NCBI RefSeq assembly: GCF_003334305.1
Contig: NZ_QOWS01000019.1
From: Escherichia coli
Lineage (GTDB): Bacteria; Pseudomonadota; Gammaproteobacteria; Enterobacterales; Enterobacteriaceae
DNA length: 64,000 nt
Direction: 5' to 3' (one strand)
Within the stretch, counting starts at the first letter, position 1. The number at the start of each line of letters is the position of its first letter. Below are positions 1 through 9,000 of the stretch, one piece after another. Position numbers: made by a program.

Positions 1-3000
1 TCCGGTTATTCATCAGACGGAGACCGCTGAATGTGGACTGGCCTGCCTAGCAATGATATGCGGTCATTTTGGTAAGAATATTGACCTGATATATCTTCGC
101 CGGAAGTTTAATCTCTCTGCCCGTGGAGCAACCCTTGCAGGAATCAATGGAATAGCGGAGCAACTGGGGATGGCCACCCGGGCTCTTTCACTGGAGTTGG
201 ATGAACTTCGAGTCCTCAAAACGCCGTGTATTCTCCACTGGGATTTCAGTCACTTCGTCGTTCTGGTCAGCGTAAAGCGTAACCGTTATGTACTGCATGA
301 TCCGGCCAGGGGCATAAGATATATCAGCCGGGAGGAAATGAGCCGATATTTTACAGGCGTTGCACTTGAGGTCTGGCCCGGAAGTGAATTCCAGTCGGAA
401 ACCCTGCAGACCCGCATAAGTCTTCGTTCACTGATTAACAGTATTTACGGTATTAAAAGAACGCTGGCGAAAATTTTCTGTCTGTCAGTTGTAATTGAAG
501 CAATCAATCTGCTAATGCCGGTGGGGACACAGCTGGTTATGGATCATGCTATTCCTGCGGGGGACAGAGGGCTACTGACGCTAATTTCTGCTGCTCTTAT
601 GTTTTTTATATTACTCAAAGCTGCAACGAGTACGCTGCGCGCATGGTCTTCACTGGTTATGAGCACGCTCATCAATGTACAGTGGCAGTCGGGGCTGTTC
701 GATCATCTTCTCAGACTACCGCTGGCGTTTTTTGAACGCCGAAAATTAGGTGATATCCAGTCACGTTTTGACTCCCTTGACACATTGAGGGCCACATTTA
801 CCACCAGTGTGATCGGGTTCATAATGGACAGCATTATGGTTGTCGGTGTTTGTGTGATGATGCTGTTATACGGAGGATATCTCACCTGGATAGTTCTCTG
901 CTTTACCACAATTTACATTTTTATTCGTCTGGTGACATACGGCAATTACCGACAGATATCAGAAGAATGTCTTGTCAGGGAGGCCCGTGCCGCCTCCTAT
1001 TTTATGGAAACATTATATGGTATTGCCACGGTAAAAATCCAGGGGATGGTCGGAATTCGGGGGGCACACTGGCTTAATATGAAAATAGATGCGATAAATT
1101 CGGGTATTAAGCTAACCAGGATGGATTTGCTCTTCGGAGGAATAAATACCTTTGTTACCGCCTGTGATCAGATTGTAATTTTATGGCTGGGAGCAGGCCT
1201 TGTGATCGATAATCAGATGACAATAGGAATGTTTGTAGCGTTTAGTTCTTTTCGTGGGCAGTTTTCGGAAAGAGTTGCCTCTCTGACCAGTTTTCTTCTT
1301 CAGCTAAGAATAATGAGTCTGCACAATGAGCGCATTGCAGATATTGCATTACATGAAAAGGAGGAAAAGAAACCTGAAATTGAAATCGTTGCTGATATGG
1401 GGCCAATATCCCTGGAAACCAATGGTTTAAGCTATCGTTATGACAGTCAGTCAGCACCGATATTCAGTGCTCTGAGTTTATCTGTAGCTCCGGGGGAAAG
1501 TGTGGCTATAACTGGTGCTTCCGGTGCGGGAAAAACCACATTAATGAAAGTACTATGTGGACTATTTGAACCTGATAGCGGGAGGGTACTGATAAATGGT
1601 ATAGATATACGCCAAATTGGAATAAATAATTATCACCGGATGATAGCCTGTGTTATGCAGGATGACCGGCTATTTTCAGGCTCAATTCGTGAAAATATCT
1701 GTGGTTTTGCAGAGGAAATGGATGAAGAGTGGATGGTAGAATGTGCCAGAGCAAGTCATATTCATGATGTTATAATGAATATGCCAATGGGATATGAAAC
1801 ATTAATAGGTGAACTTGGGGAAGGTCTTTCTGGCGGTCAAAAACAGCGTATATTTATTGCACGAGCCTTATACCGGAAACCAGGAATATTATTTATGGAT
1901 GAGGCAACCAGTGCTCTTGATTCAGAGAGTGAACATTTCGTGAATGTTGCCATAAAAAACATGAATATCACCAGGGTAATTATTGCACACAGAGAAACAA
2001 CGTTGAGAACTGTTGATAGAGTTATTTCTATTTAAACCATAGAGGAATTACAAGCGTATGAGGAATATTTCTTCCTGTTATAATTCCTCGTTATGCTCAG
2101 ATATCTGTTGGAGGTGGAATGGAAGATAGACAATCCACCAAGAAGAAATATCATTCTGTGTGGATTGTCCAATAACTGTTCTTTCTTATATTAAATAATA
2201 CTATTTATAAACAAACATCACTAAGATTATTTGGACTCCAATTACACAATCTTCCCGCAGCATAGTTCCATGCTTCTGAAGGTATCCCTTCGGGTTTTTG
2301 CTTAATTGTTCCCCCTAAACCGGATGGAGACATTGCAGGATTAGGTTTGTGAGTGGATGCATAGTCATATATTGCACCTCCAGCCACACCCCCAGCAGCT
2401 GCTCCAATTCCTCCTGCAACAAATTGCCCGGATAGTGTTCCTATAGCCATCGCAATATCACGCCCTGAAGCACCACCAGAAACAGAATCTAATTCATTTA
2501 GAGTCAGAGTTCTCATATGATCTCCTTTTTATCTTATCGGATATTGAATAATAATTATCACCAACAAAGTAACATATTGCAGACATTAATGCAGAGAAGC
2601 AAAATGTATGCATGGATAAAAAGTCCTTTCCTCTAAAAACACAATCATATATAGCTAATGCAATATATATTGCGGTGGCATTTATTATAAATGCAAATAA
2701 CAACTCTAATTTTGTTCTTTTTCTATCCATTACTTTTTATCCCATTACTTTCTATCCCATTACCACACAAACACTAACGATAATGATTATCGTTAACATA
2801 GTCAAGAGTGAAGGGTAGGAGGCCCTCAACCCCCTATAAGGGGTCCGCTTGGAAAACGGATTTCCCCACGTCAAGAGAATTGATTTGAACGAGTGGCTTC
2901 GCTACAAACAGCTCCCGTTTGTGTGTGAAAAACCCCTCTCAACAGATCTCAACTCTGCACGATATCTACAGGAGATTGCTCCAAAAGGCAGTATCGTGTC

Positions 3001-6000: not shown

Positions 6001-9000
6001 GTAATGGCGGAAGCCGGATACCCAGCCGCCAGAGAATACACAGAAGAGGAGGGGCATAATTGCTCCGCCACATCTTTTTGCTGTCCATCAGGGCAATGGC
6101 CCGGGCTTTTTTCTGCTCAAAGGTCACAGGAGCACCTCCGTTCCATGATGTAAACGTGACACAGCTTATTGTTATTGATTATTATTATCATGCTGTGGTT
6201 ATGTTGTCATGCATCAGTACACTGACAAAAGTGCAAAAGAAAGGAAAACAGGCAGATGAACAGAAAATATTATTTTAATAATATGTGGTGGGGATGGGTG
6301 ACGGGGGGATATATGCTGTATATGTCATGGGATTATGATTTTAAATACAGATTACTGTTCTGGTGTATTTCTCTCTGCGGAATGGTTTTGTATCCGGTTG
6401 CAAAATGGTATATTGAAGATACAGCTCTGAAATTTACCCGGCCTGATTTCTGGAACAGCGGTTTTTTTGCTGATACACCTGGAAAAATGGGATTGCTTGC
6501 TGTTTATACGGGTACTGTTTTCATATTATCTCTTCCGTTAAGTCTGATATATATTCTTTCTGTTATTATAAAAAGGCTGTCTGTAAGATAGACAGCCTGT
6601 CTTATATTTTATTTAAATACCCCAGAACTTATTCGCTTTTTCCACAAGCGATTCATCAATCAGCGCACCGGTGACAGCCATCAGTAAACCATACCCGATA
6701 ATGCCTAAAGCGCTTCCGGTAAGAATACTGAAGACCAGTGCAACAAGAGCCGTTGCGGCATTGCCTGCTATAATGGCTTCTGTTTTAACAAAAAGAGGAC
6801 GCCAGTTCTCTGTCCGGACACCCTTACCAAACTCAGTGATCCAGTCAGCAAGACTTGTAAATTTTCCTGCATATCCCAGTCCCCGACTGAATCTGTTCAG
6901 ATTAGACGATATATCAGACAGCTTCACTGACTCAAGGGCTGCGGCAATCGCTGCACGATCTTTTGCATTAATTTTTTTGTTAATGTCAGCCCGGTACTTT
7001 TCATACGTTTTTAATGCCTCTTCAACATTACGTATTTTCTTCCCTTTAGCCTGCCCGGCCATCTCTCTGGCTAACTGCTCAGCTTTTGCACCATATTTTT
7101 CTGAAACTGATTTCAGGAACTCTGTTGTGAAATTAATTGCGTCTTTCGTTGCCTTCAGTTCATCCTGTTTTCTTTTCTCTTCCGCTATCTTCTGATTGAT
7201 GCCGGCAAGCTGGTTACGGATATTCTCTTTTTCCTTCAACAGGGCATTAAGAGCGTCATTTGCATGCTTTTGCTCATTTGTTCTGGCACTGAGGTTATTT
7301 CTCGCAGAATTTACCGCAGATTCAGCAGAGGTGATTTTATTTCTGGCATCAAGCAATCTTTGCCGTAACTTATCCCATTCAGCAACTTCAGCATTATAAA
7401 TTTTCTTGTCACCTTCCACATCCTCTGTCACCACCGGATTCCGGTCATTCAGAATATTGCGTTTATAGTCCAGACCGGAATGGGTCAGAAGATAATTCAG
7501 GTTTGCACGGTTATCGATGACTGCGCTGGTTGTGATTTTTATCGTACCGGCAAATCTCGGATCACCGCTCACAACAATAGAATGATTTGTTGATGAACGC
7601 CCCGGGAATTTTTCAGGGGAAACTATCGTTTTGCCGTCAAGCGTGTTTTTCTGTTGCGTCAGCTGTTGCTCAGCTCTGGTTAATGCATTACGGGCCGTGT
7701 TAAGCGATTCCGTCACTGAACTGAGTTTATTCCGGGCCTCTGAAATGGCCCTGTCATTCCGTGTCTGCTGCCCGAGCAGACGGGCCTGTTGTGCATCAAG
7801 AACGGCAAGGGCTGCCCCGCCATTTTTTTCCAGCTCTGACAACCGCGTGTCCAGAATACCTTTTCTGCGCTCGTATTCAGCAAGCATATCAGCGGCCTTC
7901 TTGTCTGCGTTCTGCGCATCCTTCTGCCGTTTTTCAGCCTGTTCGATTAACGACCTGGCCTCCCGGGGAGATATACGAAGAGAATCAGCATCAGCAAAGA
8001 GCATCCGGCTCTCTGTATGCAGCCGGAGGGCATCATATCCGGCGATTTCAGTACGGAATCCGTATTCTCTCAGCTCTGCCTGCAGGAGTCTGAACTCCTG
8101 TCGTGTAATATCAGCGGCATCTGCGTTTCCGGCACGGAGTGTTTTCAGTGTGTTTTCATCTTTTTCCCTTGCAGCAATCGCCGCAGAGAGGCGTTTTGCG
8201 GCTTCAGTACGCTTATTCTCATTCTCTTTCTGCTGCGCGCTGAGCGTCATTTTGTACGCTGTGATTTCCTTGTCCCTTTTTTCGATATCACTTCGGGTTG
8301 GGGAATCATCGACCCACTCGTTTCCGCCCCAGATGGTTTTGTTCCCGAAGGAACTCCATGCAGGCGGGGTACCATGAAAGACATCGACACGTGGAGGGTT
8401 TACATAAATATCAACGGCCATAATTTCATGGCCATCTGAATCATACCCCAGCGATTCTGCACCGGGATTTGTAATACGTACAGGGTCAGACATTCGGTAT
8501 CTCCTTCATCCGCTGAGGAAAACAAATGAATTAACTGCTTACGTATGTGGATACATATACAGTATTAATTTATTAAGGAGAAAATGGCATGTCAAGATTT
8601 AATGATAGTGATTATCATTAACATGAAGTGATTTTACGTCTGGATAACGTAAATGATTGCGGTATACAGGCCAGGCGGTCAGATTTTCAGCCGTGCCTGT
8701 TCCTGCAGCAGTTCCAGATGATATGCAGCAATAGCGTTTACCACCCCTGCCGTCATCCGTGCGTCGGCGATCGCTGAGTGTGCCTGCCCTTCCCAGGTCA
8801 GTCCGGCCTGGCTGGCAGCACAGGCCAGTGAAATCGTGCCATAGCGGTTGGTGGCCCCATAATATCCTGCAGCCAGCTCCATCGCACAATATACCGTCAG
8901 TTCTTCCAGCCAGTCAGCCGGATCGCTATGTGCGGCAGCAGTCTGTTTCAGAATGCGGATGTCGAACCGGGCATTAAAGATAATTACTGGTCGGTCCCCG

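Follow-up and report, generated by a model that had tools for sequence, protein, structure and literature searches.

Colicin V and colicin Ia genes on a pS88-type plasmid segment of Escherichia coli: two unrelated toxin systems with probably overlapping iron and SOS control

Colicin V (microcin V, MccV) and colicin Ia (ColIa) are toxins encoded together on pS88-type plasmids of Escherichia coli, and in this study we analyzed the two systems in a stretch of 64,000 nucleotides (hereafter the window) from contig NZ_QOWS01000019.1 of E. coli assembly GCF_003334305.1. The pair is already described and is real but ordinary. Likewise, the linkage of both toxins on a single plasmid, the control of colicin V by Fur and the joint control of colicins Ia and Ib by Fur and LexA are already in the literature. 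The linkage was published by Jeziorowski and Gordon in 2007, as cited in PMC2995468, and Fur represses both colicin V operons according to PMC6071977, which cites Boyer and Tai 1998. Mitomycin C strongly induces the promoter of the colicin Ib gene (Pcib), the iron chelator diethylenetriaminepentaacetic acid (DTPA) does so to a similar degree, and the two together give the maximum (PMC3879352); the same paper refers to previous studies for the Fur-dependent control of colicins Ia and Ib. Pcib contains one LexA site and a putative Fur site upstream of the -35 element, and this arrangement has been called 'double-locking' (PMC4675545). Group B colicins have no lysis genes, and colicin Ib (ColIb) is released by prophage-mediated lysis (PMC7374059). 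MccV and ColIa are competitors for a single binding pocket on their common receptor Cir (PMC12511343), which in turn is under repression by Fur. Published papers are thus the source for the phage-mediated release, the common receptor and the iron and mitomycin C responses, the last of these on DNA that differs by at most two bases.

The segment is very probably the bacteriocin region of a ColV/ColIa IncF virulence plasmid of the type of pS88 (pECOS88, NC_011747.1; from the neonatal-meningitis strain E. coli S88), carrying two unrelated toxin systems with overlapping controls. The first 9.6 kb of the window match many ColV/ColIa IncF plasmids at 100%, and over this length two bases, at 5856 and 6928, differ from pS88. 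Over the first 15.6 kb there are four base differences from pS88, none of which alters a toxin or immunity protein or lies in an operator. The DNA of cvaC, cvi and iia is identical to that of pS88, and Cia is identical as a protein. The annotation of pS88 at these positions gives cvaB, cvaC, cvi, colicin Ia and 'colicin 1A immunity protein'. About 62 kb of the window, including the tra and leading regions, are collinear with pS88 at about 99.9% identity. A preliminary description of this DNA had proposed that two unrelated bacteriocin systems, colicin V and the pore-former colicin Ia, lie within 6 kb of each other, and both parts of this proposal hold. The Pfam family MccV covers residues 1-102 of CvaC with an E-value of 1e-52. 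The colicin Ia open reading frame (ORF) is matched by the Pfam families Colicin_Ia (E-value 3e-49) and Colicin, the pore domain (E-value 2e-48), and it aligns with the solved structure PDB 1CII with eight substitutions in 602 aligned residues (1268 bits), whereas the pore domain of colicin Ib aligns far more poorly (180 bits). The two loci are about 3.9 kb apart and span 6.4 kb in total. NCBIfam contains no models for CvaC, Cvi and the Ia immunity protein and gave a spurious SMC match for colicin Ia, so Pfam and the solved structure were used instead.

We consider it highly probable that the control logic of the two systems overlaps, that is, both toxins are induced when iron is low, with DNA damage as an additional inducer of colicin Ia. 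At the sequence level, a Fur-like site, a -35 element, a -10 element and one LexA (SOS) box are present in this order at the cia promoter (Table 1). Scanning the 64 kb with a 19-bp Fur consensus and allowing at most three mismatches yielded three matches, all of them inside the bacteriocin span, against 0.01 expected from shuffled sequences. The match at the cia promoter lies 8 bp upstream of the -35 element, a distance that an extra CATTAA hexamer shortens to 2 bp; neither this site nor the one at 6171-6189 had been named in the preliminary description. For LexA, the simple pattern CTGT-N8-ACAG with at most one mismatch occurred 41 times in the window against 22 expected, and neither candidate box of cia was among these matches. 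This pattern was too crude and was therefore replaced by a position weight matrix made from 20 E. coli SOS boxes, the scores of which are approximate. The LexA-like site directly downstream of the cia -10 element is the top-scoring position of the window, and its 14.8 bits are within the range of the training sites, whose minimum is 13.1 bits.

The preliminary description had placed tandem LexA-box-like sites at 8535-8562. This span does run from CTG to CAG, yet only the 20-mer at 8545-8564 scores. The second candidate box, at 8533-8552, gave -7.7 bits and ranked 1695th, and was rejected. The candidate LexA cores overlap by four bases, which corresponds to an offset of 12 bp, whereas the dual boxes of group A colicins overlap by one or two bases. 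In colicin E1 the paired LexA cores are offset by 15 bp. Compared with that distance, we infer that two LexA dimers at a 12-bp offset would probably clash. The single LexA site reported for Pcib (PMC4675545) agrees with the rejection of the second box. These results bear on a scheme of separate triggers, in which Fur alone would govern colicin V, and colicin Ia would answer only to LexA, bound at a tandem pair of SOS boxes. Such a scheme would be suited by the Fur-like site of the cvi promoter and the LexA-like site of the cia promoter, by the lack of a LexA-like site near cvi in the weight-matrix scan and by the two overlapping LexA boxes found in most group A colicin promoters (PMC4675545). 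It is nevertheless very improbable, because a Fur-like site with 17 of 19 matching bases stands beside the cia -35 element and is conserved in colicin Ib plasmids, the distal LexA box fails both by score and by spacing, and published reporter and quantitative reverse-transcription PCR (qRT-PCR) data contradict it: Pcib responds to a chelator (PMC3879352), and on pS88 cia rises together with cvaA, cvaB and cvaC under low iron. The different regulatory logic that had been ascribed to the two toxins therefore stands insofar as colicin V is of the Fur type and colicin Ia of the SOS type; the separate triggers, and with them the use of a different toxin for each signal, do not.

Colicin V is an iron-only system without SOS input. 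Its Fur-box-like operator, which had been recognized at 2779-2797 in the preliminary description, was found there again on the minus strand, and it covers the spacer and the -10 element of the predicted cvi promoter, 49-67 nucleotides upstream of the cvi ATG. Since the box lies over the spacer and the -10 element, iron-loaded Fur (Fe-Fur) would block transcription and iron shortage would lift the block. In pS88, another Fur-like site, also with 17 of 19 matching bases, precedes the annotated start of cvaA by about 300 bp, a position outside the window. The cvi gene is upstream of cvaC and overlaps it by 23 bases, and no Pfam or NCBIfam model matched Cvi. CvaC begins with a 15-residue double-glycine leader, MRTLTLNELDSVSGG, in which the two glycines are residues 14-15. 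Its predicted exporter, CvaB, matches NCBIfam families of bacteriocin export peptidase/ATP-binding cassette (ABC) transporters with an E-value of 2e-143, and residues 22-697 are intact in the window, including the AECGLACLAMI cysteine peptidase motif. The leader region of cvi at 2731-2775 contains three tandem units of about 15 bp, which resemble GTAATGGGATAGAAA on the minus strand; each has an ATG, and the annotation places the start of cvi at the last of these. Inside cvi, a weak Fur-like match (14 of 19 bases) and a promoter-like site are present (2547-2565 and 2662-2691).

Colicin Ia had been described as having no lysis gene, and our searches agree with this. A tblastn search with three lysis proteins returned only noise, with a best E-value of 0.01 far from the locus, and no lipobox ORF of 25-80 amino acids was present in 4200-9600. 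As no lysis gene accompanies cia, release of colicin Ia most likely needs lysis from another source, such as SOS-induced prophages. What survives of the contrast between the toxins is probably that colicin V is secreted under low iron, whereas low iron or DNA damage leads to synthesis of colicin Ia, with release mainly upon damage.

Expression data and sequence conservation are both consistent with iron input at the cia promoter. In a qRT-PCR study of pS88, expression was given as the fold change relative to plain lysogeny broth (LB) and normalized to dinB, and the in vivo values were from the related plasmid pAMM (PMC3438092). In LB with dipyridyl, serum, urine and in vivo, respectively, cvaA was raised 26-, 44-, 44- and 216-fold, cvaB 13-, 18-, 19- and 162-fold, and cvaC 22-, 17-, 30- and 61-fold. 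The corresponding values for cia were 5.1 (p 0.105), 21 (p 0.023), 6.0 (p 0.087) and 70. From the Fur-like site to the ATG, the cia promoter (Pcia) and Pcib of plasmid pCol1B9 from Salmonella Typhimurium SL1344 differ by two bases, of which one is in the leader and the other at the final position of the LexA box core. The Fur-like site, the -35 and -10 elements and the LexA box are kept in four IncI plasmids and in pCol1B9, apart from single-base differences. The -35 and -10 elements are identical in all five of these aligned colicin Ib-type plasmids, and the Fur-like 19-mer is unchanged in pCol1B9 and in all four aligned IncI copies except that of pC49-108, which deviates by one base. Homology with the IncI colicin Ib plasmids runs from inside the colicin gene to about 8637, just past the Fur-like site.

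Several points weigh against the reading of two intact toxin systems with overlapping controls. The LexA box is a modest match (15 of 20 bases) with CAC instead of CAG in its 3' arm, where Pcib has CAT, and its score is only about 1.3 standard deviations above the maxima of shuffled sequences (12.4 ± 1.9 bits). Binding of Fur and LexA to the exact sites on this plasmid is inferred. The Fur-like site of cia is upstream of the -35 element and not over the promoter core, it is called 'putative' for Pcib in PMC4675545, and no fur-mutant or footprint data on it were found in the accessible literature. The 5.1-fold rise of cia in chelated LB on pS88 is not significant. In the same medium cvi changed 0.84-fold as compared with 22-fold for cvaC, which a single Fur-controlled cvi-cvaC transcript fails to explain (PMC3438092); this mismatch might reflect unequal stability of the transcripts or the action of an internal promoter. 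The evidence for phage-dependent release was obtained in Salmonella with colicin Ib and not in E. coli with colicin Ia. Finally, cvaA and the first 62 bases (21 codons) of cvaB fall outside the window, although both genes are intact and of full length in pS88.

Some of these points would fit a cia Fur-like site that is a non-working operator, with control by LexA only and an indirect effect of chelation through stress or the SOS response caused by chelators, serum or urine. The position of the site off the promoter core, the weak cia response to dipyridyl in LB and the failure to find a fur-mutant test in the accessible literature are in its favor, as is the normalization of the pS88 data to dinB, which is an SOS gene and could have distorted the comparisons. 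We regard this possibility as very improbable, for the match equals that of the accepted colicin V box and is far beyond chance, and the site has been conserved, with one substitution in one aligned copy, though the adjacent upstream flank has been replaced. The fourth hexamer, which extends the Fur-like repeats almost to the -35 element, also speaks for a functional site. In addition, DTPA alone acts on Pcib about as strongly as mitomycin C, and the earlier work on Fur-dependent control cited in the same paper (PMC3879352) points in the same direction. Another alternative is that one system is inactive on this plasmid, so that the pair would be a relic and not a two-toxin arsenal. The part of the export operon that is not visible in the window, the decay of the genes between the loci (a frameshifted Gfo/Idh/MocA gene and a truncated FAD-dependent oxidoreductase gene) and the insertion sequence (IS) elements found within the segment in some related ColV-type plasmids would be in line with a relic. 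However, the visible reading frames for toxins, immunity and export are all intact and the toxin and immunity genes agree with pS88, where cvaA, cvaB, cvaC and cia are all transcribed, and the whole 9.6 kb is kept in more than 100 records. A relic is thus hardly credible, and overlapping control of two intact toxin systems remains our preferred interpretation.

Overlapping control would work as follows. A sigma-70 promoter would read cvi-cvaC, with its spacer and -10 element under the Fur box, and Fe-Fur would sit on this promoter and likewise on the cvaA promoter. Under low iron the precursor would be made, the peptidase domain of CvaB would cut off the double-glycine leader, and the mature peptide would leave living cells via CvaA-CvaB and the host TolC. 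The cia promoter would be under two locks, Fur beside the -35 element and one LexA dimer after the -10 element; iron shortage or DNA damage alone would give partial expression, and both together would give the most. The immunity gene is on the opposite strand and would be expressed separately from cia. Colicin Ia would accumulate and exit probably only on cell lysis, for which the colicin Ib model offers SOS-induced prophages. Because the two toxins share an iron-repressed receptor, iron shortage would arm the producer and sensitize the target together. Iron starvation, as in the inflamed gut, serum and urine, would then turn on the toxins and raise Cir on competitors. The pair is relevant to competition in the gut and at extra-intestinal sites, and ColV-type plasmids mark virulent lineages of extra-intestinal pathogenic E. 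coli (ExPEC) and avian pathogenic E. coli (APEC). The value of this analysis is corrective: one LexA box and a Fur site should be annotated at the colicin Ia promoter, and the two toxins should not be said to answer to separate signals.

The frequency of the toxins was surveyed in 5,426 complete E. coli genomes, a non-random collection in which a segment was counted if at least 80% of its length was present. The cvaC-cvi segment was found in 518 genomes, iia-cia in 343 and the entire linked 9.6 kb in 102. About 33 genomes would be expected to have both modules if these assorted independently, and the linkage is accordingly enriched roughly threefold, a rough figure given the non-random collection. 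A second copy of the end of ydeA, ybaA and a Fur-like site, 90-98% identical, is located upstream of cvaA at 2886-3966 of pS88, outside the window; its counterparts in the window are 5548-6231 and 9726-10025. This second copy is fused directly to yacB'/yacA and resembles a colicin I backbone that has lost cia together with the immunity and exonuclease genes. The colicin V segment in pS88 is situated between a colicin I scar and an intact colicin Ia copy, and this arrangement suggests recombination between two colicin I-type plasmids.

The third Fur-like site, in the spacer between the divergent ybaA and immunity genes, overlaps with promoter-like sites on either strand, and its sequence does not vary among the IncI colicin Ib plasmids or in the second copy on pS88. 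On pS88 under low iron, ybaA was up about 5-fold, which was not significant, and no increase of the immunity gene was measured in chelated LB (PMC3438092). We tentatively consider, as a possibility that is rather less probable than not, that the colicin I module holds an undescribed third iron-controlled unit at this site. If so, the site at 6171-6189 could serve to regulate ybaA, the divergent DUF6404 gene, or else the immunity gene, as something accessory to colicins Ia and Ib. Separately, the two diverged copies of the colicin I backbone that bracket colicin V in pS88, one of them the scar, would offer a precise recombination route by which the two toxins became linked.

Table 1. Features of the bacteriocin region, with positions in the window
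Feature	Position	Strand	Basis
cvaB, 3' 97%; colicin V export ABC transporter with N-terminal C39 peptidase domain	1-2035	+	ORF; pS88 cvaB, 100% identity
cvaC; colicin V (microcin V) precursor, 103 aa	2205-2516	-	Pfam MccV PF17508; pS88 cvaC, 100%
cvi; colicin V immunity protein, 78 aa	2494-2730	-	ORF; annotated cvi WP_001323890.1
Predicted cvi-cvaC promoter; -35 TTGACT 2805-2800, 17-bp spacer, -10 TATCGT 2782-2777	2777-2805	-	Consensus scan, 9/12
Fur-box-like operator GTTAACGATAATCATTATC	2779-2797	-	Consensus scan, 17/19
Gfo/Idh/MocA oxidoreductase gene, frameshifted	2849-3668		
SemiSWEET transporter gene, intact	3670-3939		
FAD-dependent oxidoreductase gene, truncated to an 88-aa stub	3936-4202		
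Hexapeptide-repeat acyltransferase gene	4258-4710	-	
ydfA and ydeA, small plasmid genes	5003-5850		
ybaA (DUF6404), small plasmid gene	5870-6127	-	
Third Fur-like 19-mer, in the divergent ybaA/immunity-gene spacer	6171-6189	-	Consensus scan, 16/19
iia; colicin Ia immunity protein, 111 aa, convergent with cia	6256-6591	+	pS88 annotation WP_001080729.1; Pfam PF03526, E-value 4.5e-7
Terminator-like hairpin between convergent iia and cia, 9-11 pairs, T-runs on both strands	6574-6598	both	Consensus scan only
cia; colicin Ia, 626 aa, Cir-binding central domain and C-terminal pore-forming domain	6613-8493	-	Pfam; PDB 1CII
Single LexA (SOS) box TACTGTATATGTATCCACAT, directly downstream of -10	8545-8564	-	15/20 to consensus; weight matrix 14.8 bits
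Predicted cia promoter; -35 TTGACA 8595-8590, 17-bp spacer, -10 TAAATT 8572-8567	8567-8595	-	Consensus scan, 10/12
Fur-box-like operator GTTAATGATAATCACTATC	8604-8622	-	Consensus scan, 17/19

The two bacteriocin loci are separated by a decaying gene cluster at 2849-4710. To the right of cia are an exonuclease gene, the yacB-yacA toxin-antitoxin pair and IncFII repA. At 10136-10155, outside the bacteriocin loci and 16 nucleotides upstream of the yacA antitoxin start codon, the sequence TACTGTGTATATACGTAGTA matches 16 of 20 bases of the LexA consensus (13.6 bits), and by mismatch count it is the closest match to the 20-bp consensus in the window. It may be an operator of the YacA/YacB toxin-antitoxin system rather than an SOS box.

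Four described systems resemble this locus. The colicin V part is like the pColV-K30-type cvaAB/cvi-cvaC system in its convergent export and toxin-immunity operons, double-glycine leader, C39-peptidase ABC exporter and Fur box at the cvi promoter, and no difference from that system was detectable within the part contained in the window. The ColV-Ia IncFII/FIB virulence plasmids of ExPEC and APEC, represented by pS88, have the same gene order as the window: cvaB, cvaC-cvi, decayed sugar-metabolism genes, ydfA-ydeA-ybaA, iia-cia, yacCBA and repA. In its leading region pS88 carries the IS21-like element ISEc12 (istA-istB, about 2.6 kb), which the window lacks, the junction being at about 51839-51849. 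The IncI1 plasmid pCol1B9 shares with the window the Fur-like site, the -35 and -10 elements, the LexA box, the leader and the start of the colicin gene, as well as the neighbors DUF6404/ybaA, ydeA and ydfA on one side and the exonuclease gene, yacB and yacA on the other. The order repA, yacA, yacB, exonuclease gene, followed further on by colicin, immunity, DUF6404, ydeA and ydfA genes, is thus common to the IncF plasmid of the window and to pCol1B9. Colicin Ib of pCol1B9 likewise has no lysis gene and uses the receptor Cir. Unlike pCol1B9, the window has an Ia-type C-terminal pore domain and an Ia-type immunity gene instead of their Ib counterparts. The colicin promoter of the IncI plasmids is separated from the exonuclease gene by yagA and a ProQ/FinO-family gene, but in the window the exonuclease gene comes immediately next. 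The operons of group A colicins (E1, E2-E9, A and K) are like cia in having LexA control just downstream of the -10 element and an immunity gene beside the toxin gene. These loci are found on small plasmids of high copy number and have a lysis gene and mostly two overlapping LexA boxes (PMC4675545). Colicin Ia of the window differs from them in its one LexA box, its lack of a lysis gene, its location on a large conjugative plasmid and the added Fur input.

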